Shown: in pieces, positions 26,929-58,974 of the stretch | Layout of the letters: every line of letters starts with the position of its first letter | Numbering within the stretch: position 1 is the first letter of the stretch | NCBI GenBank assembly: GCA_019057795.1 | Contig: JAHLWS010000078.1 | Location: forward strand, 32,001-96,000 | DNA: 64,000 nt | Reading direction: 5' to 3' | DNA from: Promethearchaeota archaeon | Lineage (GTDB): Archaea; Asgardarchaeota; Lokiarchaeia; Sigyniarchaeales; SOKP01 | Made by a program: the position numbers and the translations under genes | The notes under the pieces: model-generated | Told to the model about the DNA's origin: nothing | Seen by the model: the letters and a program-made list of their open reading frames with translations, nothing else | Database searches by the model: none

Positions 26929-26968
26929 TCTTCCTCTCCCGTGGCGTCCACTCCTACAAAAGTGGGTG
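26929..26968 (+). repeat. C-rich array repeat, copy 1 (divergent)
   Basis: tcttcctctcccgtggcgtccactcctacaaaagtgggtg. Confidence 0.75.
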
Positions 26969-27164
26969 CGAAATTTATTAAAAAATAATTTGACCAAATA
27001 ATTTTTATTTTAAGAGCAACATTAGTCTTATAAGGCAAGAAGTATAGAAATGAAGATTAAAAATGAATTTCAATGACGAAATTATCAAAGAACATTAGCA
27101 TTAATCTTTTTACTTTCCCCAGGTCTTAATAAGAAAGGATTAAAAAATAAAAAGACACGCTTAA

Positions 27165-28064
27165 ATGGTGATCATTAAAATGCTTGACAAAATGGAACCA
27201 AAGGAAAAAAGGATATTACAAGGAGTCGTCTTAAGTTTAATCGGAACAATTATTATAGCATATAATTTATTCCCATTATTTTACATGATGGGTCTTCCAT
27301 TTACCCTTGGAACGGTGCGCATGATAAATTATTGGATCCTTGGAATAGCCTTCATTCTTACCGGTGTCTTCACTTTAAAACCACGGAGAACGAGGAAGGG
27401 AATTATTGTGCTAGGTTCAATTTCAACCATTATAGGGGGGATACTAATTCTTTCTACCATGCAAATAATAGTTGAACTCGTTGTAAGATTTGGGGGAACT
27501 TCAATCATCTATATATTTTGGAACGATATTCCAATCTTGGCTACTTTTATGATATCAGGAACGGTTTTACTCTTACACGGACTAATCCTAATCATCACAA
27601 AACAAAAAAATATGAAGCTCATTTGGGGAGTAATTTTTGCTTCGATTGGAATAACAGTAATCGTTTGGGTGTCCCGTCCATTATACATGTCAATCATATC
27701 TTCAACATTAAACCCATTTTTTTATACGGCAATTAACTTAAACCTTATAATTATTGGTGTCTCATCACTACTTATTGGTTTTTTTTATTTTAATCCTCCT
27801 GAAAAAAAGCGCATCAAATTGCTCGTTGGGATGATTTCAATAATTTTCGGTTGCGTAATCGTTATTTTCTCGCTTTTTGGCATTTTAAGTTTTAACATGT
27901 ACTTGGAAAGATTGGAATCAGAAGGAACATTTGCAAGCGTGATGGACTTGAACTCAATTTTTGTGGTATTTATTTTGGTGGGGGTTGGATTAATAATTCA
28001 CGGTGTATTTATGATAAAAAAGAGAGATATTAAAAAGGATCGCTATCATCCCACAGACGAGTAG
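27165..28064 (+). CDS. Multi-pass membrane protein
   Basis: About 8 hydrophobic helices, apparent internal duplication. Confidence 0.75.
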   Translation: MVIIKMLDKMEPKEKRILQGVVLSLIGTIIIAYNLFPLFYMMGLPFTLGTVRMINYWILGIAFILTGVFTLKPRRTRKGIIVLGSISTIIGGILILSTMQIIVELVVRFGGTSIIYIFWNDIPILATFMISGTVLLLHGLILIITKQKNMKLIWGVIFASIGITVIVWVSRPLYMSIISSTLNPFFYTAINLNLIIIGVSSLLIGFFYFNPPEKKRIKLLVGMISIIFGCVIVIFSLFGILSFNMYLERLESEGTFASVMDLNSIFVVFILVGVGLIIHGVFMIKKRDIKKDRYHPTDE

Positions 28065-28148
28065 AATCAATCAAATAATTTGGTGAATCTTTAGAGACTG
28101 AAATACTTTAAAAAGATAAAACATTAAACTTTTTTTTTCTGCCTATTT

Positions 28149-28186
28149 ATCTCACTCCCCCGTGGTGCCTCCTCCTAAAAAAGCAG
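28149..28186 (+). repeat. C-rich array repeat, copy 2
   Basis: atctcactcccccgtggtgcctcctcctaaaaaagcag. Confidence 0.9.
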
Positions 28187-28784
28187 TCAAAATGATAAAA
28201 GCATCAATTTTAATAAGTTTTAGAGTTAAACTCTCTCTTTTATTCAAAGCAATTATTTTAGTCTCCTTCTGCCCATTTGGAAGATGGGTAAGGAGACTTT
28301 TTGTTAAAAAAACTTTTTCAACATTAATATATATGTATTTCAAATTATTTAAAGATATTGTTAATTATCGTTATTTACATCATTGATATTGGAATTCTGG
28401 ATTATATTCTTTAAGAAAATCAACTATCTACTGATTAAATTGAGCTGGATTTTAACGGTGTAAAAATTAATAGCTTAACAATCTATATAAAACAATAAAT
28501 TTCTATTGAGAACTAATGGATAAATCCATTCAAAAACTAAATTATAATCTAATTCATGCAAATTTAATACATAATCCTTAAATTAGATAAAATTGACCAC
28601 ACGATTAGGCGAAGTTCTAATAAAATTGGATAAAATTACAAATATCTATAAGTGATTATTTATCATTCCATCTAAATTTAAAATCTGAAGTAGAATTCTA
28701 ATATTTGTTGCTTAATTAGATAACCTAATATAAGTTCAGAAAATTTATAATATACATTATTTTTATTATCCCTTATTTTCTATT

Positions 28785-28822
28785 ATCCCTCCCCCGTGAT
28801 GCCCCCTCCTGAAAAAGCAGGT
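28785..28822 (+). repeat. C-rich array repeat, copy 3
   Basis: atccctcccccgtgatgccccctcctgaaaaagcaggt. Confidence 0.9.
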
Positions 28823-29004
28823 GCAAACAATACATTTAAGATATTATAAATATCTCTAAAGAATAAAATTTATTTAGAATAAATAGATTTAATTCAAAAA
28901 GATAATCTTGAAAGTTTTCTTAAGAATACTAATTTAATAATAACTATTAAAAATGTAATTTTACCATATACTTTAAAAGATAAAAAATTAAATGTGCATA
29001 TTTT

Positions 29005-29856
29005 TTGACTGATTTTAAATTACCAAAAGACTTGACGGATAAATGTACTCAAATGTTAAAAGCATATTATAATTTATATATTCTTGAGAATACTTTACGT
29101 CTATTTATTGAAAATACTGCAAAGTCTAAGTATGGAGATGACTATTGGGGAAAATTAACTATTAAAACCAAAATTGAAAGAACTATTAAAACCAGAAAGG
29201 ATAACGAGAAAAAAAATAAATGGCTTAATTTTAGAGGAGAATCAAACATATTTTATTTAGACTTTATTGATCTTAGAAGTGTTTTAATAAGTAATTGGAA
29301 TATTTTTAATGATTATTTTCCAAATCAAGAATGGATAACAAATCGTATTTCAGAACTCTATGATATTAGAAACCGAATAGCACACAATTCATTTATATAT
29401 TTAAGCGAGATTGAACAACAGACAATCGAAACTTATGCTAAATCAATCTATCAACAATTAAAAATATATAAAAATAATCTTAATTTACCAAATAATCTCA
29501 TCGTAAAAGCAGTTAAACCGAAATTTCAGGAAACATCTTTATTTAATAGATTTCAAAGACTCTTCTTTGAAAGAGATTTTAAAGAAATTTTAACCAAATG
29601 GGATATTTTTGAAGAATTATTTGATACAAATGCTTTTTATAAAATTAACAAAATTGCTAATATTTCTGGAAGTGAAACATTTATAATTCAATATAAATTT
29701 AAAGATGCTACAATGTATCTATCTCATGGTGGAGGTAAATTTGGATGTAACATAAGTATTTCCGCTAATAAATGTATTTCTGATGATAATGAAAAATTTA
29801 ATAACATTGCAAAAGAATTCTTTAAAATAATAGCAGATGGAGTTAACGATATTTAG
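29005..29856 (+). CDS. Swt1-like HEPN domain protein
   Basis: LYILENTLRLFIE and IRNRIAHN (R-x4-H). Confidence 0.78.
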   Translation: MTDFKLPKDLTDKCTQMLKAYYNLYILENTLRLFIENTAKSKYGDDYWGKLTIKTKIERTIKTRKDNEKKNKWLNFRGESNIFYLDFIDLRSVLISNWNIFNDYFPNQEWITNRISELYDIRNRIAHNSFIYLSEIEQQTIETYAKSIYQQLKIYKNNLNLPNNLIVKAVKPKFQETSLFNRFQRLFFERDFKEILTKWDIFEELFDTNAFYKINKIANISGSETFIIQYKFKDATMYLSHGGGKFGCNISISANKCISDDNEKFNNIAKEFFKIIADGVNDI

Positions 29857-30077
29857 AATGAGTTTTAAAAATTTAAAAAAGCAGGAGTTTGAAGATTTCA
29901 AAATGGGAGATTCTTGAAGCTCTATAATGATTGAAGTGTTCAGAGTTTTAGTTAATACTAAAATTAGGGTGTATTTATAAAACTGAGATTAATTGGTATG
30001 TTGAAAAATTATTAAAAAATGATCTCATTGAAATAAATAAAGATATACTCTCAATTAAAAATAAATAATGGCTTTTT

Positions 30078-31475
30078 ATGAAGAAACATATCTATATTTT
30101 TAGAATTAACTATTTAGAAGTTAGATCACCTATTAAATTATCTGAAACTATCTCTATTCTTCCTGGAAATTATGAGTTATCTCAAGATGAAGATTTAAAT
30201 TTTGACATTTCGTTTCAAATTAATAAATATTCCTATATATTTATCGAAAGAGATATTAGCTTAAAAATCAGTGATCTTAAAAAAGAGCTGAATCTTATTT
30301 TTGCTCTAATTTCCTTTTTATTATCAAATTGGATAGATATTTATCCTCAAGAAAGTTATCATATAAATTATGATACCAACAAAAGAATTATGTTAGAAAA
30401 AGGAATAATAGTTCCATTTAAAAGCTTTAAATTTAATAGACAATATTCCAGAATTTACTCAATTAAGGACAGATTTAGAAAGATTATAAATGAGATGTAT
30501 AGGATTTTTATAGAGGACCCTATTTCTGATTCGATATATTTCATTATTGGGCAGTTCCTAATCTCTAAGAGGGAAGATATTCTCTTAACAAAAGTTATTT
30601 ATGCTTGGAATGTTCTCGAGCATTTTGCTTCTAGTTATTGGGAAAATACCAATAAGACACAACTCTACATAATAAATGAAGAGAAATTTGACCAGTTAAT
30701 GAAATCTTTAAACGACACCCTCGAAGAATATATCAAAAATAAAATTAAACAAAATGATATTTATCTCTCTCAATTAGAGGTTGATTTTTATAGACAAGAT
30801 TATATAAAGCTCTTAAAAGATAAATTAAGGAATGGAGTAGATAATTTTTCTCCTATAAAATATAAGATAATTCGGATGTTTGAAATTGAAGGATTAAATA
30901 TGACAAAGCAGGAATATGAATTGATAAATAAGATGTATAAAATGAGAAATTTTATTTATCATAAAGGTGTTAAAAAAGAGGAAATTGAAAAAGAAATAAA
31001 AAAAGATCCCGCAGATTTAGCTAAAGAATTTTTAAACTTTTTAGAAATCAAAATTTGGCAATATTTTAAGTTTATTAATAAATATGCTACGCTAAATAAT
31101 GAATTGATCTCTTTTAAAGAGTGTCAGATTTCTAAAACGAGTTTAGTGGTTGAAGATTATACTGAAAAAAGGGAAATTTTAAAAAAACTGGAATTTGTGA
31201 GAGAGAAAATAGAGAAATATTCAAATAAACCAATAGAAGCTCGAATTATGGAAGTAAAAAAGGAGTTTAATACATATATAAATTTTAATTATAAAAGAGA
31301 TAGTTATGAAGATGGTTTAGTTATAGATAATTTACCTCAAGATATACATTCATATGGAAACATAATTAAATTAAAAGCCAAATTAGATGATTTAAATGTG
31401 ACTTTTAATTTTAATGGGATTTTTAAATGTGGTATATTTTCAGAAATCCTTATTGAAAAATTTATTATAGAATAA
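30078..31475 (+). CDS. HEPN domain protein (ApeA-like architecture)
   Basis: AWNVLE and MRNFIYHKG. Confidence 0.65.
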   Translation: MKKHIYIFRINYLEVRSPIKLSETISILPGNYELSQDEDLNFDISFQINKYSYIFIERDISLKISDLKKELNLIFALISFLLSNWIDIYPQESYHINYDTNKRIMLEKGIIVPFKSFKFNRQYSRIYSIKDRFRKIINEMYRIFIEDPISDSIYFIIGQFLISKREDILLTKVIYAWNVLEHFASSYWENTNKTQLYIINEEKFDQLMKSLNDTLEEYIKNKIKQNDIYLSQLEVDFYRQDYIKLLKDKLRNGVDNFSPIKYKIIRMFEIEGLNMTKQEYELINKMYKMRNFIYHKGVKKEEIEKEIKKDPADLAKEFLNFLEIKIWQYFKFINKYATLNNELISFKECQISKTSLVVEDYTEKREILKKLEFVREKIEKYSNKPIEARIMEVKKEFNTYINFNYKRDSYEDGLVIDNLPQDIHSYGNIIKLKAKLDDLNVTFNFNGIFKCGIFSEILIEKFIIE

Positions 31476-31907
31476 GACTTCTTTCTTTTCTCGCTCCTTT
31501 AGAATCGCCTCCCTCTCCTAGATATGCTGCGGGTAGTGCTGTGATCCCAATTATTCTATTCTAATAGATTTTATTGCTTCTTTATTTTTTATTTTATGAG
31601 CTCCACTCCAAGTTTCATCGAATCCATAATAACACATCATAGGCTCTCCATTATATTCTACTTACAATTTATTTTTTAAATGTGGTGGAATTTTTAATTA
31701 AACATATTCTCAAATGTATTTGTCTTTTTCTAAATAATAAAAGATAAATTCTTTTTCCTTCACCGGACTCTTATCTTCGAAAATTTTTGCCATACTATCA
31801 TCATAATGTGAAACTTTATCCATTCTTTGTTGCACTTTTTTCCTTGTGTTCTTGCCGCTTGAAAAATTACATCCCTGAAGGCAATAAAGATGGTTATTTA
31901 CAAATAT

Positions 31908-32852: not shown

Positions 32853-33027
32853 GTAATTGATACCTCTGGTTAAATACTTTGACTTTATTGTAAAGTATAA
32901 ATAGTTAATATGTTTTAAAAATTATCAATTTTTGCAATAATTCAAGCAATATAGAAATTATTTAAGAGACTTTTTTCTTCTATGTCCTTCGATAAAATTG
33001 TTTAAAATCATCCCACAATCTTTTTTT

Positions 33028-33062
33028 ATCTCCCTCCCCAGTGGGGCCCCCTCCTAAAAAAT
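33028..33062 (+). repeat. C-rich array repeat, copy 4
   Basis: atctccctccccagtggggccccctcctaaaaaat. Confidence 0.9.
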
Positions 33063-33103
33063 TCGATATAAGTTTTGTTCTAAATGTGATACCTATTATT
33101 ATT

Positions 33104-34081: not shown

Positions 34082-34083
34082 CC

Positions 34084-35466: not shown

Positions 35467-35546
35467 AGTTTAATTCATTTTATTTATTTAATAATAAATT
35501 ATATACCTAGGTATATAAAAATTAACCATTTTTAAATTTAACTTTT

Positions 35547-36391: not shown

Positions 36392-36430
36392 ATCTCCCTC
36401 CCCCGTGGTGCTCCCTCTTAAAAAAGTAGG
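36392..36430 (+). repeat. C-rich array repeat, copy 5
   Basis: atctccctcccccgtggtgctccctcttaaaaaagtagg. Confidence 0.92.
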
Positions 36431-36842: not shown

Positions 36843-36880
36843 CTCCCTCCCCTCGATGCTGCCTCCTAAAAAAGTAGGGG
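36843..36880 (+). repeat. C-rich array repeat, copy 6
   Basis: ctccctcccctcgatgctgcctcctaaaaaagtagggg. Confidence 0.85.
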
Positions 36881-36901
36881 AAGGATTAAAAATTGCGGAA
36901 T

Positions 36902-37741: not shown

Positions 37742-38014
37742 AGTATCCTAAAATCATCAATTTTTGAAAGAAATCTATAATTCTATGATTTATAACACAA
37801 TTCAGTTATATAAATAAGAGAGGTTTAAGGATTAATAATTAATATGGCAATAACAACGAAAAATTTTGACTGTGGGTTCCTATTTCATGTTTTTATAATA
37901 TTATACTTAACAGATTCAAATTAAAATATGAATGTAATTAGGTTTTTTATTTAAATACTCAAGAAATTATGTAGTTTTAAATCATTATATCAATATATAC
38001 AAGTAAAAAAGGAA

Positions 38015-38224
38015 GTGATCGGTTTGAAACTAAAAGAAGAAGAAAGCTTTCATGGAGAATTAATTGAAACACCAGAAGAATTCATAGAGGATCTGTGCGA
38101 GAGACTCAATATCGCCTATAGCACACTAATGGAAGAAGATGATAAAATGAATCGGCTCGCTTATATCACCACTTTTCTAATCGCTTTCAAAGGAAGACTG
38201 AATCGAGTCTGCGAAAATATATAG
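38015..38224 (+). CDS. Small conserved protein, recurrent in the island (copy A)
   Basis: Clear paralog at 44239-44439; same upstream AAGGAAGTG start context. Confidence 0.8.
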   Translation: MIGLKLKEEESFHGELIETPEEFIEDLCERLNIAYSTLMEEDDKMNRLAYITTFLIAFKGRLNRVCENI

Positions 38225-38288
38225 AAATTTATGTCTGCAATTTAATAATAATTATATAAAAAGATAGATTTTAAACGGTAGTAAAAAC

Positions 38289-39091: not shown

Positions 39092-39435
39092 TTTTCTTTT
39101 TCACCGTTTTAAGAGACACAAGGTTCGAGCCTTTTTAAATTTTGTCCCAATTTCAAAGGAAATTTGGATGGAAAGGTAAATTCAGAGTCATTTTCCCATG
39201 AAAATTTCATAAAAAATTCCCCCTCCCCTCAAATGAACGAAAAATTAAAATAAACAAGGGACTTAAAAAAACAGGAATAAAAGTTATTTTAAAGTTAAAT
39301 AAATATAAAATTACTTCTGATGGTTTGTGGCACATAAATAATGAAAAAGACCGTTCAGGACTTGAACTTTATATTAGAATTAAACACTTAGATAGATTGA
39401 GATACTAATCAAAAAGCATAATTGATCACAAATAA

Positions 39436-40428
39436 CTATTTTTTTCTTTCTGCTACAGTTTCTTCTTCTAAAGAATTACGTTTTGTTTTTTCGTCTCTTA
39501 TTACTTTTTTTACTTTTGCTCTTTCTTCAACAATTTTCTTGTCTTGTTGTTTTTCATCTTTTATTACTTTCTTCCTTTGTTTCTCTAGAATTTTTTTCAT
39601 ACTTTCAGTATATTTTTGTTGTCCCTTCTTTTGACTCAATACAGCATCTACAAGAAAAACTAATGAAGTACTAATTGATTCTGCATCTTCTAAACATTCT
39701 GTATCTGTTCTTCCATGCAACCCTTTACTTAAAGCATCGTGTAATGTTTTTAAAGGATTAAACTGTTCTGGCTTTAATATTAATGGTAATAGGTCTTTTA
39801 CGAGTGCTATTTTTTTTGTAGCAGTTTTAGTTTTTCTTACTTCTTCTAATGCTACTTGATATTTTTCTAATTCTTCCCCGCTCATTAAATCTGTAATCGA
39901 TTCTAGTAATTGTCCAATAATATCTTCGACAATTCTCCTATAATAAGCAAATGCTCCAATTCCATAACTGTGAAATTCACAGGTTTTACCTTTTTTATAA
40001 TATTCAGAATATCCCTTTAATATCTTTTTTAGAGTCTTTTCAATATTTATATCCCATGCTGGAAATTGTCCAACTTTTTCAATAGTTTTCAATCCCTTCC
40101 CCATTTTTATAGCAAAAAACCGATGAAATTTTTCACAATACGCACAAATATAATTTAGATTAACTAAATCATTTTCTTCGAGTGTTGGAGGAGGTGGTGG
40201 TTTGAATATTTTAATAACAACATCTTTTTCTTTTTTATGATTGTATTTATGAGTAAGTCTGAAAGTCCGAATTTCATTACAATTTGGACAGTACATATTT
40301 AAATTAACATCTGGCAAATCAACAATAGTAATAGGGAAAAGAAATGAATTTTTTCCAAAATCAAAATCAAATTTTTGATAGAGTGAATATTCCTCAAGAA
40401 ATTTTGCATCTGGCATGATTAATTTCAC
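39436..40428 (-). CDS. Zn-binding, DUF4145/HEPN-like protein
   Basis: CPNC and CAYC, GIGAFAYYRRIVE, LHDALSKGLH. Confidence 0.65.
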   Translation of the reverse strand: MKLIMPDAKFLEEYSLYQKFDFDFGKNSFLFPITIVDLPDVNLNMYCPNCNEIRTFRLTHKYNHKKEKDVVIKIFKPPPPPTLEENDLVNLNYICAYCEKFHRFFAIKMGKGLKTIEKVGQFPAWDINIEKTLKKILKGYSEYYKKGKTCEFHSYGIGAFAYYRRIVEDIIGQLLESITDLMSGEELEKYQVALEEVRKTKTATKKIALVKDLLPLILKPEQFNPLKTLHDALSKGLHGRTDTECLEDAESISTSLVFLVDAVLSQKKGQQKYTESMKKILEKQRKKVIKDEKQQDKKIVEERAKVKKVIRDEKTKRNSLEEETVAERKK

Positions 40429-40918: not shown

Positions 40919-40955
40919 ATTTCCCGCCTCTTGTTGCCCCCTCCTAAAAATGTAG
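40919..40955 (+). repeat. C-rich array repeat, copy 7 (divergent)
   Basis: atttcccgcctcttgttgccccctcctaaaaatgtag. Confidence 0.8.
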
Positions 40956-40994
40956 TTTTTTTCTCTTTATTTGCAGATTCAAGGTGTAGAACTA

Positions 40995-41702
40995 TCACCT
41001 TCTTAAAAAAGAATAATAACTTGTAAGTTTTGTAGGGTATTTCACTCCATTCCATTCTATAGTGCTATTACTCCACATATTATTACCATCATTATCATAT
41101 ATCATTTCTTCTAGGAGATTATCATATGCATCCTGAGAAATTTCGACATGATAGGGAGATCTTGCTTGATTGGCTATAGCAACTGCAAAATTAACACATT
41201 TTCCAATAAAAACTAGATCATTATTATTAGCATCCCTAGAAATTCCTGCTCTAAGAATATATACTTCACCCAAATCTATTCCAATCCCGAAATCAAGTTT
41301 TTCATATTTTTCAAAATGTTTTGAAAATTCAATGTCCAAGAACCATTTAGTTACCATTGCTGCTTCCACAGCGGTAGTTATCTGTTTCTTATAAGCACCA
41401 GCCCAAAAGGCCAAAATTGAATCTCCCTGAAAGCTTCTTATTTTTCCACCGTATTTTTGCGCTACCTTTGCAGCTACTGTCAGAAAGGCTTTATGAATTT
41501 TACCAGAAGTTTGTTTATGATGTTGAAAGAGTAAATCACTTGAATTCCTCAGATCAATACTATAGGCACATAGATTCAACTTTTTTGCTTTCTTTTTAAA
41601 AGAAACATTATCAACTGATGGAATATCTGTAATTTCAGAAACTTCATAATCCCCTGCTAAATACTCGCGCACCTGATTTTCTAAATCATTCACAAACCCC
41701 AA
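40995..41702 (-). CDS. pycC: Class III nucleotide cyclase, Pycsar PycC-like
   Basis: SIDLRNSS, FQGDSILAFW, GIGIDLGEV, NDLVFIGKCVNFA; directly downstream of a PycTM-like gene. Confidence 0.8.
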   Translation of the reverse strand: MGFVNDLENQVREYLAGDYEVSEITDIPSVDNVSFKKKAKKLNLCAYSIDLRNSSDLLFQHHKQTSGKIHKAFLTVAAKVAQKYGGKIRSFQGDSILAFWAGAYKKQITTAVEAAMVTKWFLDIEFSKHFEKYEKLDFGIGIDLGEVYILRAGISRDANNNDLVFIGKCVNFAVAIANQARSPYHVEISQDAYDNLLEEMIYDNDGNNMWSNSTIEWNGVKYPTKLTSYYSFLRR

Positions 41703-41720
41703 ATTTCTATCGCCTTCATT

Positions 41721-42275
41721 TTAAACTAATAGATTAATAAAACCACTTAAAATCAAAAATAGAATTGTTAAACCCATATTAGTTATTAAAAAGTAGATCG
41801 AATAATTGACAAACTTGAATTTTTCTTTTGCTATATAAGATAATTGATAAATTTGTTTTGAATACTCTTCCATTAAATCTTCTTCATTTAAGTCCTTTAT
41901 TTTGGAGTAATAATCATTAGAATTTTTATATTTCAATACATGTTTAAAATAAAACAATCCCTTCCGTTCTCTCTCTGACTTCTCCTTTGCTTCCCTAGGT
42001 TTAAAAACCAAAATTGTGCAAATAGTTCCACATATTGATGAACTTATCAAAACTATTGTTATTATTATGTAAAAAATTACAAATCCTTGATACTCGTCAA
42101 ATAATATTCCCGCTTTCTTAAAAACATCAGATAATAATGAAAATCCTAACCCTATAGTAATTAATAAACTGTGAATTGTCAAAGAAATATTTGCCTTAGA
42201 ATCTGCTAAAGCAATCATACCTTGAGAATCAGAATAAGCCTTTGAAAGAACTTCATTTTTGTTTTTAATATCCAT
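41721..42275 (-). CDS. pycTM: Pycsar transmembrane effector (DUF5706-like)
   Basis: IALADSKANISL, two TM helices, PR...GLFYF, QIYQLSYIAKEKF, final TM. Confidence 0.8.
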   Translation of the reverse strand: MDIKNKNEVLSKAYSDSQGMIALADSKANISLTIHSLLITIGLGFSLLSDVFKKAGILFDEYQGFVIFYIIITIVLISSSICGTICTILVFKPREAKEKSERERKGLFYFKHVLKYKNSNDYYSKIKDLNEEDLMEEYSKQIYQLSYIAKEKFKFVNYSIYFLITNMGLTILFLILSGFINLLV

Positions 42276-42440: not shown

Positions 42441-42478
42441 ATCTCCCTCCCCCGTGTTGCTCCCTCCTAAAAAATCGG
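42441..42478 (+). repeat. C-rich array repeat, copy 8
   Basis: atctccctcccccgtgttgctccctcctaaaaaatcgg. Confidence 0.92.
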
Positions 42479-42543
42479 ACATTACTCTGATTTTATATTT
42501 TTAATTTAATCTAACATTATGAAAAAATAATGAGTATTAAAGA

Positions 42544-42623
42544 GGGAAATGGTGGGAGTTGAACCCACGCTCGTCTGATTGACGGTCAGTGATCTGCCCG
42601 CGCAGTCAGGGAGATGGTCTCCC
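42544..42623 (-). pseudogene. Degenerate tRNA-like element (anticodon GTC, Asp)
   Basis: Minus strand has T arm GTGGG-TTCAACT-CCCAC and anticodon arm CTGA-CCGTCAA-TCAG; D arm and 5' acceptor are non-canonical. Confidence 0.55.
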
Positions 42624-42709
42624 ATATTTATTATTAATATTATAAAATAAATTTAGCCTAATAAATATATACATTATAGTAAAAATAATAAAAGGCTATC
42701 TTACATATT

Positions 42710-42747
42710 ATTCCTCCCCCATGGTGCCCCCTCCTAAAAAAGTAGGT
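42710..42747 (+). repeat. C-rich array repeat, copy 9
   Basis: attcctcccccatggtgccccctcctaaaaaagtaggt. Confidence 0.92.
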
Positions 42748-43957: not shown

Positions 43958-44238
43958 GATCTTAATTATAACTTATTAATTTGATGTTTTCTCTTCTTTT
44001 TAAAACACATTATTTATATATATTGATTATATTATAAACCGGTTCTTATTAAAAATCAAATAAAACATAGATAGCTTTATGATGTCCAATACAATCAAAA
44101 TCTAAGTATTATGCATTCCAAACACTACCTTAAAATCTGAATAAACTCAATTTAATAGTCTTAATAAGATTTTTTATTTTTGTACACATGAAATTATTTA
44201 ATTTCAAATTGTTTAATCAAAATATGTAAGTAAAGGAA

Positions 44239-44439
44239 GTGATCGGTTTGAGATTAGATGGAGAAGGAACCTTTTTTGGTGAAATCATCGATACTCCAGA
44301 AGAATTTGTCGAAGACCTCTGCGATAGAGTCAATACCGTCTATAGCACTGCAATGGACGAGGACGATAAAATGAATCAACTCGCCTATCTCATCGGATTT
44401 CTGATTGCTCTTAAAGGAAGGCTGAATCGAGTTTTCTGA
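44239..44439 (+). CDS. Small conserved protein, recurrent in the island (copy B, last residues frameshifted)
   Basis: TPEEFVEDLCDRVN...EDDKMNQLAY...KGRLNRV, matches 38015-38224. Confidence 0.8.
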   Translation: MIGLRLDGEGTFFGEIIDTPEEFVEDLCDRVNTVYSTAMDEDDKMNQLAYLIGFLIALKGRLNRVF

Positions 44440-44642
44440 AAATAAAGAGAATTTTCGTCTATTCCCAACGAAATGTTAGACATGAATGGGAGATAATCGA
44501 ATTTTTATATTAAATAATAGATTGGGGATAGAAGAAGATTCAATTATTGCTCCATCTTCAAATGAAATGTTTCAAATCAGCAATAATTTAGATGTACAGA
44601 TTAAAAAAGCTATAGAAGAAATTTAAAAAAACTAAACAAGAA

Positions 44643-47141: not shown

Positions 47142-47180
47142 ATCGCCCTCCCCCGTGGTGCCCCCTCCTAATTACTCGGG
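47142..47180 (+). repeat. C-rich array repeat, copy 10 (cctaatta variant)
   Basis: atcgccctcccccgtggtgccccctcctaattactcggg. Confidence 0.92.
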
Positions 47181-47781: not shown

Positions 47782-48199
47782 TTTTTTAATTAATATTTTA
47801 TATTTCTAGTTATTTTATAGTACGCAATCTATTTAAGTTTTCGGATCGATCACTTTTATTTTATGATTGATCACTTTTTTCGTAAGTGATTGCTATTAAA
47901 TTATAAGTTTACCAATCAAGACTCAGAGCAGATTTTGAAAGTTAAAATCATCATAAAACCGGAATTATAGTTTTTTGGAAATCACCCTCAACCGGGGAAA
48001 TTTAGGAGTACTGTTGGGATTTAGATGAATACCGAGAAATGGTTAAATCGGAAAGAGAATTCAGTAAAAGAGAAACTCGAAGCTTAAATTTAATTCTTAG
48101 CTTGACTTATCTTCTAAGAATAAAATATAAAAATTCATGAATAAAGCTATTAGATAACTGAGAATTAAGTAAGATTCAAAAAAAAATAATTAAAATATA

Positions 48200-48345
48200 T
48201 TACATAACATTTTGGGAGAGTTTAATCATGCAATAAATTCTTTTAATCCTATTTTAATAAAAAATATTTATAAGCATTACTTTTTTGTTAAATTAATAGC
48301 ATAATTATAGATCCTTAGATCTGAAAACTTAATTAAATTAAAAAT
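48200..48345 (+). repeat. 146-bp duplicated leader/promoter block, copy 1
   Basis: About 4 mismatches versus 59071-59216; contains TTTATAAG. Confidence 0.9.
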
Positions 48346-48362
48346 GAAGTTTATGAATAAAT

Positions 48363-49148
48363 ATGAGTGTTAAGAAAAAAGAGATATTATTAAAACAGAT
48401 AGAAGAGATTTTTGAGGAATTTAAATTTGTGAAAAACAATTATCGCCAAGGCCATTATCCAGTTATACATTATTATAACGCTGAAGAGGGTGCGAGAATT
48501 CAAGCTTTGTATACCAAAATAATCTCATTGGTCAGAAGGTTTTATGGTCCAGAATCTCAATATTTTATACAAGTTAAGGATTTAGCTTCTAAGCTTACTA
48601 GATCTAATTTGGAGCTGATAATTGGAGTCTTAACTGCTATTTATGATATTTTGAAGAAGGATTATGAAGATCTGGATTTAGTAAGACCTATAACTTTGAA
48701 GTTTGAGAAAATCATTGAGGACATGAATCTTAATGACCAAATTTATCAGGATGTTGTTGACGAAATTAATGGGACATATAGGCACTATTACTTTAATTCT
48801 ATGTACATAATAATTCGAAAGTTATTGGAAAATCTTGTTTATGACTGTCTCAATAAGTATTATGGAACAAATCAAATAGAATTATACTATAATACAAGTA
48901 AAAATAGACATCATGGTTTTGGTACTTTAATTGAGAATTTTAACATCTTAATTAAGGTTATGAATTTCAAAACATCAGTTGGTGATATTGAACAAAATAT
49001 TATTGATTGGCTTAAAAATTTCCAAGAAAAAGGTAATAAAAATGCACATTCTTTATTTAGTCTTGCACATCAAGAAATGGTTGAAGAAAATAAAGATAAA
49101 ATAAATGAACTTATAAAAAAATTAATTTACATAAAAGAAAAATTATAA
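48363..49148 (+). CDS. DUF4145/HEPN-like protein
   Basis: IIIRKLLENL and EKGNKNAHS. Confidence 0.6.
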   Translation: MSVKKKEILLKQIEEIFEEFKFVKNNYRQGHYPVIHYYNAEEGARIQALYTKIISLVRRFYGPESQYFIQVKDLASKLTRSNLELIIGVLTAIYDILKKDYEDLDLVRPITLKFEKIIEDMNLNDQIYQDVVDEINGTYRHYYFNSMYIIIRKLLENLVYDCLNKYYGTNQIELYYNTSKNRHHGFGTLIENFNILIKVMNFKTSVGDIEQNIIDWLKNFQEKGNKNAHSLFSLAHQEMVEENKDKINELIKKLIYIKEKL

Positions 49149-49213
49149 TTTCATCGTAAGAATAGCATATAAAATATGACCTGTACATATTTTCAAGAAA
49201 TATCGATTTTTAT

Positions 49214-51309: not shown

Positions 51310-51460
51310 AAGTAAAAACAAAGCTTTTAATTGATAATTTCAAATTCTTCGATACAAGAAAGAAAAAGAATCAATTTTTCTCAGTTTTTTTAAATTTTTG
51401 TCTTAACCTATAATAAATGGAATATAAATATATCTTTTTCCTTGTTCTTCAATAATCATT

Positions 51461-51496
51461 ATCTCCCTCCCCCGTGGTGCCCCCTCCTAAAAAAGT
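51461..51496 (+). repeat. C-rich array repeat, copy 11
   Basis: atctccctcccccgtggtgccccctcctaaaaaagt. Confidence 0.95.
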
Positions 51497-51550
51497 GAAT
51501 GTCTTCTCCTCTCCCAATTGCCTAGGGAATTTATTTTTAAGTAAAAGTTA

Positions 51551-52093
51551 CTATTTTATTACTTCAGGCTCAATATTTGGTCCAGGATGCCAAATTAAAA
51601 AGATATTTTCGGAATAATCTTTAGTCTTCTCTTTAAAAGTCTCTAAAATATTATTATTAAATCTATCAAATCCATTAGAGTAAATTAGCATAATTCCATA
51701 ATGATATTCTGCTTGTTCAATGAAATCTAATATTTTACCCAAATCCTTTTCTAAGTTAGAAAATTTATCTTCGATATTTCTGATTGACTTCACTTCAATT
51801 ATAACTAAATTATGATCCATATAACTACGATAATGAACAACAAAATCGGGTATTTTTGCACCAATATTCTTCTCAATTATGGGGTGAGCTTTTTTGTCAA
51901 GTTCTCCATCCAGCATATATTCATAATCATCACCCAATAATTTTCGCAACTGGTGATATAATTCATAGCAATATACTCTTTCCCGATATCTCTTGTCTGG
52001 TAATTTGTACATTGAGACAGTTATATATTTTTCATCAATCAAAGTTATGGCTTTTTTAAACTTTTCCACAAAATAATCAAAATCATTTTCCAT
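51551..52093 (-). CDS. PD-(D/E)XK nuclease-like protein
   Basis: RERVYCYELYHQL, IPDFVVH, IIEVK; sole gene between copies 11 and 12. Confidence 0.72.
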   Translation of the reverse strand: MENDFDYFVEKFKKAITLIDEKYITVSMYKLPDKRYRERVYCYELYHQLRKLLGDDYEYMLDGELDKKAHPIIEKNIGAKIPDFVVHYRSYMDHNLVIIEVKSIRNIEDKFSNLEKDLGKILDFIEQAEYHYGIMLIYSNGFDRFNNNILETFKEKTKDYSENIFLIWHPGPNIEPEVIK

Positions 52094-52194
52094 AAAATCA
52101 CTCTCATTTCGAATTAAAATTACTTTTGTCTTAACCTAATATTAACGCAATAGAAATATATCTTTTTCCATATTCTCACCTATTATTAATATAA

Positions 52195-52230
52195 ACTCCC
52201 CCGTGGTGCCCCCTCCTAAAAAAGTAGGGG
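52195..52230 (+). repeat. C-rich array repeat, copy 12
   Basis: actcccccgtggtgccccctcctaaaaaagtagggg. Confidence 0.93.
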
Positions 52231-52395
52231 TGGAAGGATGTTAAAGTGGAGATTATTTTCTATCCCATATTTTCCTCTCAATTGATAGTATTAAATAGTT
52301 GGATTAATCACTAATTCTATTATCTCTTTAACAATAAAGTAAAAAAATAATATGAGGATTTAAAGTAGTGATAATTATAAAAAGGTTAGATTATT

Positions 52396-53265: not shown

Positions 53266-53463
53266 GAATATGTCCAAAAATAAGAATTTCCTAAAACAGA
53301 TGGATAATAGATAATGATTTTGTCGCAATTTTGATTGAAAGGTAAATTCAGAGTCTGATTTCGAAGGAAATTTAGTGAAAATTCTATAAAAGAAAAGATA
53401 TTATCTAAATACAAATCGAATTCTAAAGAAATATAATCAAAAGGTAATTCCATATAATTACTA

Positions 53464-54285: not shown

Positions 54286-54428
54286 AAATAAAACCCCATT
54301 TTCTTTAGTCTATTAGATTCTCTTACTTTTAGTTTCACAATTTATTATGATTAAACTTTTGTCTTTTATTTTATTTAATTACAAATATTATTTAGCTACA
54401 ATAGACATATATATTTTTCCCATTTTCT

Positions 54429-54462
54429 TTCCTGCTGTGGTGCCCCCTCCTAAAAAAGCATG
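54429..54462 (+). repeat. C-rich array repeat, copy 13 (5' part deleted)
   Basis: ttcctgctgtggtgccccctcctaaaaaagcatg. Confidence 0.85.
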
Positions 54463-54799
54463 TGTAGAAAGACCTCAAAAAAGCAAGATCTTCTAATTAC
54501 TACTTATACTTTCTTCTCCCTCTACTACTGAGCTAATAATTTCAGTTGAAATTAAAGTGAAAAAGTGATTCTTATCAGTAAGACCTTAAATCAAGGCTAA
54601 AGATTCAATAAAGGGGTTATATAATTATATTCTACCACTTATATTAAAAAAAGTATTACTAGAAGGAATTTGTGTTTTTACATATGTATTGATTAAAAAA
54701 TCTTCTCTTCTTAATTTACTTAGATCCATGTTGTTATATTATCTAGATTTAAAAGATTTAATAATTCAATATGATTGATATATTAAATAAGGTTTTTTT

Positions 54800-55954
54800 A
54801 TGGAATTAAATTATAAGATAATTGAAATTACAACCGAAGCAGCACTCAAAGATGCTTTATTTACACTTAGTGGAAAAGATAAATATTTCTTATATAGAGG
54901 TCAAAGTAATAATAATTGGTCGCTCCAGACCTCCTTAGAGAGAAAATTGGAAAATCTTAATAAAACCGAAATGGATATCGGAAAATATGAAAAGCTGGTT
55001 GTTGAAGAGTGTCAAAATAAGGATTCAAACTCATCTCCAATAGAAATAATTTCTAAAATACAACATTATGGGGGTGCTACTAGACTAATTGATTTTACAC
55101 ATCATTTTCCTGTAGCTGTGTTTTTTGCTTTTTGTGACTTTCCTTCACAAAATGTATCAATATGGGCAATATCAAGAAGAGATATACCATATATTAGTTA
55201 TAAACAATTAGAATATAATAAGGGAGATTTAGATTTATTTGAAATTGATTTTCAAAGAAGAGATCAAGAGGAAAAAGTCTGGGATTTTTATATTGATGAA
55301 TTTGTTTTTAGCAGTTTTACTAATATTAGGGATTTTATTAATAGTAAGATGGAAGATTACCCTGAGGAGTTGAAAAAATTTAAAATAGGATCCCTGGATT
55401 TATTAGCAAGTAAAGAAGATGAATTTAATTGGCAGTATCAAATGGAGCATGGAATTGAAAGTTGGGTAGTTAGATTAAATGAATTGAGTCCTAGAGACAA
55501 ATTTGTTCAAGAATCTTTAAAACAATATTGCAAAGACTTGGATAATGAACGATTATACAATCAAAGTGGATTATTTCTATTTGCTCCTAATAACAATTAT
55601 AGTTTTGAAAAAAACCTTTTTTTAGGAAAAACATGGAAAGAGCTTGAATCTAATATAATTAAAATAAAAAATCCAGATTTTAGTTAACTAGATGGCATTT
55701 GTTCTGATGTGTATAATTCATTTAGAGGTGTTATTAAATTTAATATCAGTCATTCTTTAACAAAATTTATTTTAAAGAATTTAAAAGAGGGAAAATATGA
55801 AATTTTACTACCCGATTTTTGGACTGGTGGGAATGAGAGAAAAAATAAAGAGATTGAAAATGTCAATTGGGATGGGTCTTCTATTTCCTTTCTGACATTA
55901 TTTCCAGATAAAATTGGATTTCATAAGGACTTAACTCATAAATTAATTGAATAG
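54800..55954 (+). pseudogene. FRG domain protein interrupted by one in-frame TAA (55685-55687)
   Basis: LYRGQ, QHYGGATRLIDFT, NERLYNQSGLF; the frame continues in phase to TLFPDKIGF. Confidence 0.75.
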
Positions 55955-56033
55955 TATTAAAATGTTAAAACATGCGATTAATCAACATTTTTGGTTTTTT
56001 AAATTTGTAGTTTTTGGAGCAAAATTAAATAAA

Positions 56034-56273
56034 TTAAAAAATATTGACCCATATATCTTTAGGATCTTTTATTACTTTCTGTTCTTCATCTAAAATCCCT
56101 TCAAGCCGTAATTTTTGATTAATATCCAAGTTTACTTGTAGTTTGCTTACAGAACCTACACTAGGGATGCAGATTTTATAAATTTCTTCTTGTATTTTTA
56201 ATTGAATTTCTACATTAAATCCCCTGTCATAGGATGCGTTTTGGATAATTCCTTCAATTTTTATTCTTTTCAA
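56034..56273 (-). CDS. Small beta-rich (OB-fold-like) hypothetical protein
   Basis: IKIEGII...QKLRLEG pattern. Confidence 0.45.
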   Translation of the reverse strand: MKRIKIEGIIQNASYDRGFNVEIQLKIQEEIYKICIPSVGSVSKLQVNLDINQKLRLEGILDEEQKVIKDPKDIWVNIF

Positions 56274-56468
56274 AGCATTTCCACATTTTTTTTATTTTTT
56301 GACATTTCAAGAAATAAAAATTATCTGATTTAAATATATCTGATAGATTCCACACCCCATAATTATTTTAAATTGTGATTATTATTGCTACTTCGCAACT
56401 ATTAATTCCTTAGTAGATTATATATATTTTTTTTCATTCATATAAAAGTAAAATATTTAAAATGGAAA

Positions 56469-57344
56469 ATGAGCAAAAATTACCAAATACTTCGGAATGT
56501 ACTCTTTAAATGCATTAAATGTCACAAAACTCTGAATTGTGAAGACATTTATACATTTTTAGAAGATAATATTAGTCAGATTAGAAAAGAATATGAAGAA
56601 AACATTAGATATATGATTCTTGAAGATCAGTATGTCGAAGATCCCTATGAATGCCCCATTTATGGTAGAAAGGAATTTAAATGTCCGCAATGTGGTAAAG
56701 AACTTAAAATTAAAATTGTTTTTTCTGCTTATGACAAGGAAATTTGCTCATTTTATGATATTAAGGGAGTTATACCTTTCTTTCCATTTCAAGTTTTAAT
56801 GGGGGCAAATATTAAGGAATTAATTTTAGAATTAATATTTCGCTGGATTCATATCGCGAAGAGAATTGATATAGTAACTCCTTATCTTGATCGATATGGA
56901 TATAATTTTTTAAGAAAACTACCAAGTTTTATTTATTATTATGATGATAAATCATTCATAAATATAATTACTAGAAAAGGTAAGAGAGCAACAAAAACCA
57001 AAAATGGTAAAATCATTTATGGAGAGACCGGAAAGGTGTTATTAGATAGATTATTTAAAGAAGAAGATTGTAAAACTTGCAGAGCTAATAACCCAATTAT
57101 CTCGTATGGTGATTGTATTGGGTGTATTAAATTAAGTAATCATTTAAAGTTAAAAATACCTAATATATCTCGCTCTCATTTTCACGCAAAATGGTATGCA
57201 GGTATTATAGGTAATACAGTTGAAATAATTATTACATCTCATAATTTAACTAAAATAGGTAAACTTCAACCAGAAACAGTTGGTTTATTGATTATCGATA
57301 CCATTGATTATGAAAAAAAATTCCTTTCAAAACTAAAGATTTAA
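56469..57344 (+). CDS. Zinc-ribbon plus PLD-like nuclease domain protein
   Basis: Four CxxC pairs, IVTPYLD, FHAKWY, TSHNLT. Confidence 0.7.
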   Translation: MSKNYQILRNVLFKCIKCHKTLNCEDIYTFLEDNISQIRKEYEENIRYMILEDQYVEDPYECPIYGRKEFKCPQCGKELKIKIVFSAYDKEICSFYDIKGVIPFFPFQVLMGANIKELILELIFRWIHIAKRIDIVTPYLDRYGYNFLRKLPSFIYYYDDKSFINIITRKGKRATKTKNGKIIYGETGKVLLDRLFKEEDCKTCRANNPIISYGDCIGCIKLSNHLKLKIPNISRSHFHAKWYAGIIGNTVEIIITSHNLTKIGKLQPETVGLLIIDTIDYEKKFLSKLKI

Positions 57345-57476
57345 TAACAATTTCGCCTATTAGAAATGTACGTTTGTCACCACCTTTTCTATGTTAGCAT
57401 AAAATGCTCCAAAGTATAAGTTGTAGATGGTAAGATAAAAAGCAAGCACTTGTTTAGTGTTTATATTATGTGAAAA

Positions 57477-57731
57477 TTAATAACTTGTTTTATCTTTTTG
57501 GCTTCTAATTATCAGAGCAAAAGAGTCAACAATAATATCCTTTAAATCATCACTTATAGGAAGAAGTAATAAATTCTGATATTTATCACAAAGGCTATTA
57601 AAGATTTCTTTTGTACTTTTAAGCTCAGCTTTTTTAATAGCTTCTCCATATCTTAATTTTATTTGTTTTTTTGTTTCCTTATTGAGGTCTTCTTCAAATC
57701 GATGCATTAAATTCTCAAAAAAATTAGACAT
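57477..57731 (-). CDS. Small hypothetical protein
   Basis: 84-aa helical ORF. Confidence 0.5.
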   Translation of the reverse strand: MSNFFENLMHRFEEDLNKETKKQIKLRYGEAIKKAELKSTKEIFNSLCDKYQNLLLLPISDDLKDIIVDSFALIIRSQKDKTSY

Positions 57732-57860
57732 TAATTATTCACTCTTAGAACAGCAAAAAAACTTATCATTTTAATTTTATAATAAAACTATTTTGATAAT
57801 AAAAAACCCTTATAGACAATGAATTTATTAATTTTTTCTATTTTTTTTCTCCCTATTATT

Positions 57861-57900
57861 ATCTCCCTCCCCCGTGGCGCCCCCTCCTAAAAAAGTAGGT
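57861..57900 (+). repeat. C-rich array repeat, copy 14
   Basis: atctccctcccccgtggcgccccctcctaaaaaagtaggt. Confidence 0.95.
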
Positions 57901-57989
57901 ATAGAATGATTTTAAATAACTCAAAAATAAGACAAATTTAAATTATCTTAATCCAAATTCTTTATATAAGTAAACATGAGGATGATTAT

Positions 57990-58913
57990 ATGATATCAAA
58001 GAAGAATAGCATTTGGAAATATATTTATGAAATGTTTAATAAAAGTGTTAGTGAATTAAATTCTCTTTATAATCATCCAGGTATAAAAGGACGAGAAAAT
58101 GAGGATGTTCTCATCAAGTTCCTGAAATCATTTTTACCAAGAAAATATGAGTTAACACAAAGCAAAGTTTTACTTGATAGAAATGGAAAAGAATCAACTG
58201 AGAAGGATATAATTATTTGGAACTCAGCTGAATACCCTCGTATCTTTTCAGAAACAGAATATTTCCTTATTGAAAGTGTTTCAATGTGTATAGAAGTAAA
58301 AACAACTTTAAGGAATGAAAATCTAAAAGAAACCCTTTTAAAAATCAGAGATTTAAGAAGAATGAATTATTTTAAAAGGTTGGATGGTGATCCACGATGG
58401 CAAGTACACCCCCCGCTTAATTTCATTTTCACTTATGATACAATCTGGAAGAAGTTTGGTTCAATTTTAAATTATATTACTAAGATTGTAAAAGAGAATG
58501 ATATAAAACCTAGTGAACGCTTTGATTATCTCTATATTATGCGGAAGGGAATATCATTTAACTGGGATCTCCCAGATTCCCCAACAACAAGAGGTATAGT
58601 AGATTTTTCAAAAAAATATGGGGGGAAAATACCATATAATCCTCGATGGCCTCAATTTTTTCCATCAAAACTTATAAAAGACTGCCCTATAATTTTATAT
58701 GAAAACCAAATGTGGCAAAAAGAGGGATTTAGAGAAGGATTCTTTAATGATTTAACAATAGAAAACCAAATTAAAGGTATAATTAGTTTTCTATCAAAAC
58801 TTTGTCAGTCCCTTGAAGATCAACGACTCTTCCATTCGCATAGTCTTGTTGTTTTTAGTATCCCTAATATGAAAACATCAAAGGGAGGAAGGTGTTCTGC
58901 TGAACCTTTTTAA
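57990..58913 (+). CDS. DUF6602/NucC-like restriction-fold endonuclease
   Basis: HPGIKGRENE, FLPRKY, DIIIW, IEVKTTL; sole gene between copies 14 and 15. Confidence 0.75.
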   Translation: MISKKNSIWKYIYEMFNKSVSELNSLYNHPGIKGRENEDVLIKFLKSFLPRKYELTQSKVLLDRNGKESTEKDIIIWNSAEYPRIFSETEYFLIESVSMCIEVKTTLRNENLKETLLKIRDLRRMNYFKRLDGDPRWQVHPPLNFIFTYDTIWKKFGSILNYITKIVKENDIKPSERFDYLYIMRKGISFNWDLPDSPTTRGIVDFSKKYGGKIPYNPRWPQFFPSKLIKDCPIILYENQMWQKEGFREGFFNDLTIENQIKGIISFLSKLCQSLEDQRLFHSHSLVVFSIPNMKTSKGGRCSAEPF

Positions 58914-58934
58914 ATCTTTTTTTCTCTCTTTATC

Positions 58935-58974
58935 ATCTCCCTCCCCCGTGGTGCCCCCTCCTAATTAGTAGGAG
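58935..58974 (+). repeat. C-rich array repeat, copy 15 (cctaatta variant)
   Basis: atctccctcccccgtggtgccccctcctaattagtaggag. Confidence 0.95.

Follow-up and report, generated by a model that had tools for sequence, protein, structure and literature searches.

What kind of sequence separates unrelated defence genes from one another, copy after copy and always in the same orientation, on the chromosome of an archaeon? The question is raised by a stretch of 64,000 nucleotides (nt) from a Promethearchaeota genome (G000; 4.95 Mb, 31% G+C, 87 contigs), corresponding to positions 32001-96000 of contig C78 and called the window below, in which a short C-rich repeat recurs between genes. A preliminary description of the window had proposed that the repeat is a recombination or attachment site. 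We found that self-contained gene modules are swapped, put into a new order and piled up with the repeat as their joint, and that the repeat is more strongly constrained than the cargo that it borders; both statements can be made firmly. The clustering of the copies in islands, their co-orientation and the breaks between relatives at the repeat are all consistent with the proposed role, and we consider it somewhat probable, at roughly 0.6, that the repeat is the recombination site of an integron-like gene-cassette system whose enzyme would act in trans.

A C-rich repeat in one-directional arrays

Copies were located by a profile search with a profile derived from the copies themselves. Fifteen copies were recovered in the window, all on the + strand with E-values from 1e-7 to 5e-16, and no significant match was obtained in positions 1-26900. 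These are exactly the 15 copies listed in the preliminary description, which was also right about their spacing within the window (0.27-4.4 kb) and the intergenic placement of all of them. A literal 39-mer search allowing up to 3 mismatches returned 3 matches where dinucleotide shuffles gave an expectation of 0, the remaining copies being more diverged. The array starts with a diverged copy 1 (26930-26966), the first after a creatininase gene, and continues with copy 2 (28151-28187), copy 3 (28785-28821), which carries a GTGATG variant, copy 4 (33030-33066) and copy 5 (36394-36430). Copy 6 (36843-36879) has a degenerate core, and homology with the locus L097 begins 9 nt away from it; copy 7 (40920-40956) is degenerate in its left half. 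Copies 8 (42443-42479) and 9 (42710-42746) begin and close a 267-nt unit without an open reading frame. Copy 10 (47144-47180) has an AATTAC right end and a promoter-like box, D6, on its left, copy 11 (51463-51499) has the canonical core and was found by both the profile and the literal search, and the left end of copy 12 (52192-52228) and the left half of copy 13 (54426-54462) are replaced. Copy 14 (57863-57899) and copy 15 (58937-58973, with an AATTAG right end) are the last in the window.

A possible stub at 39218 did not hold up as a further copy, as the profile does not detect it and it consists of a C-rich remnant, TTCCCCCTCCCCTC, adjoining a 55-nt box. This box, which contains GGAAAGGTAAATTCAGAGTCTGATTTC, occurs at 26870-26924, 39161-39215 and 53327-53381 of the window and is fused directly to the core of the repeat as CCTCCTAAATTGAATGGTAAATTCAG in several metagenome contigs. 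The depth bin with the box was the highest in all four mapped runs, which points to a high-copy element in these communities.

The consensus site, CTCCCTCCCCCGTGGTGCCCCCTCCTAAAAAAGTAGG, is 37 nt long. Among 67 non-redundant copies from about 30 genomes, a block of 32 nt, CTCCCTCCCCCGTGGTGCCCCCTCCTAAAAAA, is 88-99% conserved at each position; it is preceded by a weaker TTAT and followed by a weaker GTAGG, and the flanks carry no information. Across about 180 copies from Asgard metagenome-assembled genomes (MAGs) and marine-sediment metagenomes, the core of 32-37 nt is nearly invariant. Read from the sequence, its architecture is that of a pyrimidine mirror repeat, CCCTCCCCC-GTGGTG-CCCCCTCC, and not of an inverted repeat. 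The site does not fold: in 12 single-strand folds (6 copies, both strands, 80 nt) the z-scores against shuffles ranged from -0.63 to +1.42, the only stem being a 4-bp CCTA/TAGG mini-stem. It matches no Rfam family, tRNA model or clustered regularly interspaced short palindromic repeat (CRISPR) of the genome.

About 26 copies are present genome-wide, of which about 22 lie within two defence islands. The first island holds 17 copies on C78 between 58.9 and 102.8 kb, all on the + strand, two of them beyond the window (C78:97600 and C78:102831). The second array has 5 copies, again all +: four are on contig C5 at 7.7-13.1 kb, and the fifth is close to the end of C4. As C4 ends in the same 101 nt with which C5 starts, the two contigs are probably contiguous, which makes the C4 copy a member of the C5 array. 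Single copies were found on C67, C34, C65 and C80; those on C65 and C34 each accompany a toxin-antitoxin-type block in an intergenic hotspot flanked by conserved genes. The genome-wide scatter in both orientations that would mark a miniature inverted-repeat transposable element or a repetitive extragenic palindrome (MITE/REP) was thus not seen, and with one orientation per array and no inverted repeat we rejected a repeat of that type.

Beyond this genome, a scan of a species-representative genome collection with an exact 24-nt pattern gave 33 stretches, all in Asgard MAGs (mostly Promethearchaeota, one Hermodarchaeota and one Hodarchaeota), and the motif was present in at least 120 metagenome contigs of marine-sediment type, a tally that is a lower bound. 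In the collections scanned, it occurred only in Asgard genomes and marine-sediment metagenomes; no contig of the viral collection carried it, and hence no attP on a known virus was found. Within the genus its distribution is patchy (12 of 42 genomes, each representing a species, usually with 1-2 copies), and none of 16 genomes from other families of the same order had it. The array of G000 is by far the largest seen.

Adjacent copies were co-oriented in all 25 multi-copy metagenome contigs (35 adjacent pairs), as were the 10 copies on one contig of the genome G058 and those of both G000 arrays; one locus, L032, was mixed. We analyzed 186 copies with regard to their neighbouring genes. All except three were intergenic (183/186), and the four classes of neighbour-gene orientation were about equally frequent (34/30/26/23), with 80 left neighbours on + and 65 on -, and 69 right neighbours on + and 78 on -. 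Genes had their 3′ ends at a median distance of about 60 nt and their starts at 155-200 nt, and the median spacing between motifs was 1.29 kb (range 268-6671 nt). The motif is directional at the level of the array and not of the gene, which speaks against a role as promoter, terminator or transcription-factor site, and the reading as a promoter or transcription-factor site was rejected given that motif orientation is independent of the genes.

The commonest neighbours of the motif were genes for leucine-rich-repeat (LRR) proteins, which are also found at 21985-24218 of the window. In four other genomes (L005, L028, L032 and L043) the 3′ end of an LRR gene lies 8-70 nt before a motif copy, which suggests that these genes are a conserved chromosomal anchor for the arrays.

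Cassettes shared and rejoined at the repeat

Shared cassettes were detected by an all-against-all comparison of motif-bearing contigs and genomes. Since contigs of the Logan assemblies break at the repeat, joints in which a motif copy had sides of only 20-30 nt were left out of the evidence, as were parts of the array that no contig covered. Different genomes have blocks in common at 86-100% identity, with homology that stops within 10 nt of the motif. At least 7 other contigs share single cassettes with the genome in this manner, homology ending no more than 10 nt from a copy, and the breaks between relatives at the repeat that the preliminary description had called for were therefore found. 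One cassette (family A) is shared by three genomes whose sequences outside it are unrelated on either side; its cargo is 87-90% identical, yet the 38-nt site is identical in all three. A VapBC-type pair (family B) was found in five genomes, including C65 of G000. The HEPN-like cassette that starts at 52192, with copy 12 as its left border, recurs at 87% identity in G058/L042 and at 91% in L145, which places it 2.4 kb from the conserved gene on the right flank of the island. A cassette spanning 51467-52161 was 99.9% identical in a run from an unrelated cold seep, with neighbouring blocks at 91-98%; a single gene for a protein of 180 aa forms a cassette here (51551-52093, - strand), and the protein family recurs beside the motif on C67, L115 and L156. 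The last cassette of C78 recurs in L121 and cassettes of C5 in L116 and L160, homology ending 1-10 nt from the motif.

The domain searches also bore out that certain intervals between motifs hold exactly one unit. The Pycsar pair (40995-42275, - strand), consisting of the PycC cyclase (40995-41702, E = 1e-56) and the PycTM effector (41721-42275), fills one interval, with copy 7 as its left border, and stands between two motifs at 90% identity in L166. A DUF6602 gene (57990-58913, + strand) likewise forms a single-gene cassette, with copy 14 as its left border, and was identified by domain scan and cassette comparison; the cassette is 100% identical in L164 and about 92% in L140, each time with a motif on both sides.

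A change of order between close strains was observed directly. The metagenome contig Ga0209977_10000023, on which L091 runs into L164, comes from a close, nearly identical relative. The first 1413 nt of L164 equal 57552-58964 of the window at 100% identity and the next 700 nt equal 28124-28823 at 96.6%, after which the contig enters the right flank of the island (matching C78:106.6 kb and C78:110.6-114.4 kb). The second cassette of G000 thus follows the DUF6602 cassette in the relative, while the same unit lies 30 kb upstream in G000. The joint is a hybrid site: its left part, recognizable by a diagnostic C, is that of copy 15, and its right part, like the flank that follows, is that of copy 2, which puts the crossover inside CCTCCTAA. 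At the other end of the moved unit, the rare GTGATG variant of copy 3 stays with the left-hand unit, and the part with the A-run and GTAGG goes with the new neighbour. L115, on the same contig, shares with G000 the end of gene1 (the gene to the left of copy 2) and the motif, and then continues with other cassettes.

We further examined the flanks of 172 distinct copies, among which 42 pairs share the left flank only and 39 the right flank only. In 34 of the 42 left-shared pairs the homology runs out at core positions 37-50, and in 31 of the 39 right-shared pairs it sets in at positions 4-18. These limits show only that the block edges are borders, and a change-point fit likewise recovers the edges of the conserved block and not the position of the crossover. 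More can be read from families of units with diagnostic variants. A single left cargo with its core is found next to 3-4 right-hand partners, whose sequences part after CCTCCT: the end of the DUF6602 cassette and the core are followed directly by AATTAG, TATTCA or AAAAAAGCAG, and the end of gene1 and the core (copy 2) by four different right partners in different contigs. Conversely, units with a common right flank keep their own GTGGG or AAATTGAATGG start, and their core variants differ up to position 33. On the basis of these flank-sharing families and the two strain junctions, the alignments place the likely point of exchange between about position 33 and 37-39, i.e., at the CCTCCT/AAAAAA junction.

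An integron-like reading and its rivals

A site-specific process is favoured because the 32-nt block is sharp across genera, the copies are co-oriented and the exchange point is clustered. Read in the C-rich orientation, a cassette would carry one or a few genes, in either direction and under a promoter of their own, and would end in the 26-nt core CTCCCTCCCCCGTGGTGCCCCCTCCT, and the next cassette would usually start with AAAAAAGTAGG; exchange would take place at or beside the CCTCCT/AAAAAA junction. Cassettes could then leave the array, enter again at a different copy, pass from one genome to another and accumulate in a single direction at chromosomal hotspots; in this way a hotspot of 2-9 kb would have grown to 59 kb, most of it defence and toxin-antitoxin genes. 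The process would presumably involve a dedicated sequence-specific enzyme that acts in trans and a circular intermediate. In its fullest form, to which we give slightly less than an even chance, this would be a site-specific cassette system of Asgard (Loki-type) archaea not described before, with an asymmetric, non-folding site of 26+11 nt cut at CCTCCT/AAAAAA by an enzyme from an unrecognised family, whose gene would lie at another place in the genome or on a mobile element. Self-expressed defence and toxin-antitoxin cassettes would circulate between genomes and pile up at hotspots, and the system would represent an independently arisen functional counterpart of the integron in archaea.

In integrons, the attC site is imperfectly palindromic and takes up a hairpin structure (R''-L''/L'-R') when single-stranded, the cassettes are mostly promoterless, co-oriented with the array and bordered by RYYYAAC and GTTRRRY boxes, and an IntI-type tyrosine recombinase with attI and a promoter is located at one array end. 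The arrays described here resemble integrons and clusters of attC sites lacking integron-integrases (CALINs) in their one-directional row of short sites, in their small cassettes that are shared and reordered between genomes, many of them with one gene or a two-gene toxin-antitoxin or defence module, and in the exchange at one edge of the site, so that most of the site stays with one cassette. Like CALINs, they have no adjacent integrase and a cargo rich in toxin-antitoxin and defence genes. They differ in that conservation concerns the sequence of the site, of which 32 nt hardly vary between genera, and not its structure, without palindrome or hairpin, without RYYYAAC/GTTRRRY boxes and without IntI or attI in or beside the arrays; furthermore, the cargo is on either strand with its own promoter, and the motif was found only in Asgard archaea. 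The earlier view that the repeat is not an attC site was confirmed, with no hairpin in the 12 folds and no RYYYAAC/GTTRRRY box in the consensus. The system is integron- or CALIN-like in behaviour and is neither by its defining features. The integrons reported to date in Archaea are based on attC and are enriched in Asgard MAGs (Ghaly et al. 2022, PMC9668308).

No published description of the 37-nt site was found in a literature search, and other known systems match it in part. A CRISPR array has repeats of 24-48 nt and uniform spacers of 25-70 nt; this identity had been dismissed at the outset, rightly so with a spacing of 268-6671 nt and an unrelated CRISPR repeat in the genome. A dif/Xer site is 28 bp long, with two inverted recombinase-binding arms and a 6-8-bp spacer. 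Tandem accretion at a tRNA gene or a dif/Xer site, as in integrative mobile elements exploiting Xer recombination (IMEX), also leaves direct repeats of the site between blocks acquired in succession at a hotspot. Here, in contrast, the site has no dif-like inverted arms and does not lie in a tRNA gene, the units measure 0.3-6.7 kb and have no integrase, and the site travels with the cassettes to many loci. A tRNA fragment as the site was considered and rejected: the only tRNA of the window, Gly-TCC at 18989-19062, is unrelated, and no motif copy matches the tRNA model. The promoter-early stem-loop (PeSL) elements of T4-type phages are reportedly "mobile regulatory cassettes", each made up of a promoter and a stem-loop, with homology as the basis of their recombination. 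In either case a conserved intergenic module of short length, with promoter and terminator signals, flanks swappable genes in hyperplastic regions and acts as a recombination joint, but our motif is a C-rich non-folding 32-mer with a promoter-like box in a subset of copies only and an exchange point that is apparently fixed; T-runs are present near it, with no stem-loop. Finally, the C78 island is like an ordinary defence island in lying between two conserved genes, which are neighbours in relatives, and in holding varied defence genes (Pycsar, HEPN, PIN, AbiTii, Shedu-like and others), whereas the recurring oriented junction sequence that marks almost every module border here is absent from ordinary hotspots.

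A number of observations weigh against a site-specific cassette system. Sister species fill the hotspot of the C78 island without the motif. In G004, gene1 follows directly after the creatininase gene with the motif on neither side; the 226-nt segment that G000 has in addition ends in the motif (copy 1) and is bracketed by GAAATTGAT/GAAATTTAT; the right breakpoint of the comparison lies 66 nt before the next motif. Three comparisons of filled and empty loci put the breakpoint not inside the site but 8-28 nt away from it, the other genome having the gene without any site, and at C34 the breakpoint is about 28 nt outside the motif. On C4 of G000 there is a cassette without a motif, whose 93%-identical counterpart in G018/L005 stands behind one; homology begins about 10 nt after that motif. 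The breakpoints of one indel between strains, at 48104-49204, ignore the repeat, run X7 having a gene and its upstream region replaced by 118 nt. Only about 4-5 independent junctions are diagnostic, and the placement of the crossover rests on these few events. The site has neither inverted-repeat symmetry nor a hairpin, in contrast to the core sites of known tyrosine and serine recombinases and to attC. No tyrosine or serine recombinase and no IS110 or Y1 transposase was present in or beside either G000 array or the arrays of G058, and none of the protein families that recur around about 125 motif-bearing loci is enzyme-like. As to the cassette borders, the rule that the left motif always travels with the cassette on its right was dropped after the comparisons of G004, L025 and C34.

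That the window contains no recombinase, as had been stated, was borne out by Pfam and other family scans, which gave none there or anywhere in the 59-kb island. PF00589 matches are located on C56, C82 and C22 and at C78:15.4 kb, with none at C78:58.7-118.2 kb or at the C4/C5 array. Scans of the unannotated island proteins with PHROGs and PADLOC revealed no recombinase-like family, and no Xer gene adjoins the arrays. For the weak recombinase at C78:15.4 kb and the serine recombinase on C50, no homologs were found in the five genomes compared. Two candidates were examined, and neither gained support. The tyrosine recombinases of about 305 aa on C82 and C22 occur in 5 of 42 genomes, 3 of them motif-positive (Fisher p about 0.13); a homolog is present in the motif-rich G058 and none in three motif-free complete genomes, and the genomes with homologs are the nearest relatives of G000. 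The LAGLIDADG-like gene, located with a small partner at C78:109.7-111.4 kb, shows no co-variation with the motif: homologs, many of them intein-like, are found in 15 of 42 genomes of the genus and the motif in 12, with both in 5 compared to 4.3 expected. This gene is part of a group near the right end of the island (C78:107.3-111.4 kb, L013:11340-15388) that comprises two paralogous PDDEXK_5 genes, the two-domain LAGLIDADG-like protein and a 143-aa partner. On C82 (121511-124914), 2.3 kb away from the 304-aa tyrosine recombinase, there is an 80%-identical copy of its C-terminal 60 residues broken by stops, which looks like the trace of an integrated element unrelated to the motif.

The main alternative is that the repeat is a conserved intergenic element with another primary role and that shuffling is a by-product of homologous or break-induced recombination, as proposed for PeSL elements; we regard this as unlikely, at a level that still calls for attention. 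The primary role could be that of an insulator, a bidirectional terminator block or a non-B DNA structure (a bulged G-quadruplex on the G-rich strand, or H-DNA from the mirror repeat). Such an origin would account for the lack of a recombinase at the arrays and for gene gain and loss that ignores the motif, and it is in keeping with the T6 run on the G-rich strand and the T-runs left of the core, 20-85 nt past gene ends, with the D6 box that extends homology to about 110 nt on about 17 copies, and with the other repeated intergenic modules of the island (D8, D5/D9, D11). However, an insulator or terminator does not require strict co-orientation within an array independent of gene direction, and a quadruplex or triplex alone does not explain why every core position is conserved, including the GTGGTG "loop". 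This alternative is also hard to reconcile with informative exchange points that cluster in about 4-8 nt at one edge instead of being spread over 37 nt, and with a conserved block that is sharp-edged in unrelated flanks.

Less plausible still, and in our view improbable, is that the core is the att-like target of a transposon-like or homing-type inserter whose units are placed immediately 3′ of CCTCCT, each bringing or regenerating the core, so that arrays grow by tandem accretion and not by reversible exchange. The fixed junction at the right edge of the core would fit, as would the single copies with a cassette in ordinary intergenic hotspots (C65 and C34). The bracketing of the 226-nt insert by GAAATTGAT/GAAATTTAT resembles a 9-bp target duplication, but it is the only possible one and may equally reflect a microhomology deletion in G004. 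Moreover, two close strains have the unit at 28162-28785 at different places in the array, a difference that insertion alone cannot produce and that calls for excision or exchange; no transposase was found near the arrays, and the LAGLIDADG endonuclease-like gene of the island, as shown above, does not follow the motif. We attach very little probability to the remaining proposal, in which the motif would serve co-regulated defence genes as a shared transcription-factor site or RNA motif, or would be a selfish repeat of MITE/REP type, with no part in rearrangement. While the copies are intergenic, adjoin defence genes in several genomes and in a subset carry a promoter-like box, their orientation is unrelated to the genes and their distance to gene starts varies; they are not dispersed, have no terminal inverted repeats, hairpin or Rfam match, and homology between genomes switches exactly at the motif.

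The island, its cargo and the meaning of the arrays

The hotspot that holds the C78 island is bordered on the left by the creatininase gene (25917-26743, - strand), which was recognized as its conserved border by domain scan and comparison with sister species, and on the right by a conserved gene at C78:118.2 kb. The distance between the two is 2.2 kb in G008, 4.4 kb in G014, 6.9 kb in G004, 8.8 kb in G012 and 59 kb in G000. Genes between motifs are on both strands, and many of their proteins are without any family. Within the window the recognizable cargo consists of HEPN_Swt1, Hypoth_Ymh, a winged helix-turn-helix (wHTH) protein, DUF2441, PycC and PycTM, PIN_4, FRG and DUF6602; beyond it, the island has AbiTii, DUF7380, two PDDEXK_5, LAGLIDADG-like, large AAA and Shedu-like proteins. 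The C4/C5 array has genes for an Eco57I-type methylase, an AAA_15/21 ATPase, PIN, Schlafen-AlbA and HerA proteins as neighbours, and the two arrays of G058 stand amid nSTAND3/Cap4, AbiTii, SIR2 and restriction-modification genes. A protein of 330 aa encoded at 39436-40428 (- strand) of the window has no Pfam match and corresponds to phrog_25239, a phage family of unknown function (E = 1.5e-38).

The 267-nt unit between copies 8 and 9 had been described as holding a tRNA-like element. A T-arm-like hairpin is indeed present, but neither ARAGORN nor Rfam calls a tRNA. The unit contains a GC-rich structured sequence of ~80 nt (42520-42660, - strand) with the T-arm-like GTGGGTTCAACTCCCAC, an AT-rich promoter-like region upstream and a T-run downstream; the sequence occurs only once in the genome, and the cargo of the unit may thus be a gene for a small RNA.

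Several other intergenic modules are repeated in the island, namely D8, D5/D9, D11 and an element of roughly 290 nt, in addition to D6, the promoter-like box of 60 nt that is attached to the core in about 17 of the 172 copies, in many genomes. The ~290-nt family is represented at 37935-38230 and 44162-44455 of the window, at C78:106598-107179, and in L003, L025, L040 and L164 (2072-2586). Its members lie upstream of several + strand genes and, in other genomes, ~22 nt to the right of the motif, and in sister species the element is the last before the conserved right-flank gene of the hotspot; it may be the fixed end of the array or a promoter module. A 153-nt upstream region is 96% identical between 48196-48348 and 59067-59219 and precedes two unrelated genes, for a 261-aa protein and an 864-aa tetratricopeptide-repeat (TPR) protein; the former gene and its copy of the region are those replaced in run X7 (48104-49204).

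The 37-nt sequence allows such arrays to be located in any Asgard genome or sediment metagenome, and the arrays provide a source for new defence genes, as many cassettes have no known family. Even if the exchange were driven by homology, the data show that Asgard defence islands are assembled from self-contained units. If the repeat is indeed the site of a dedicated cassette system, it would be unlike any known recombination site, and a recombinase for a long asymmetric site would be a tool of interest; the closest prokaryotic relatives of eukaryotes would then have their own route to capture, shuffle and exchange immune genes.

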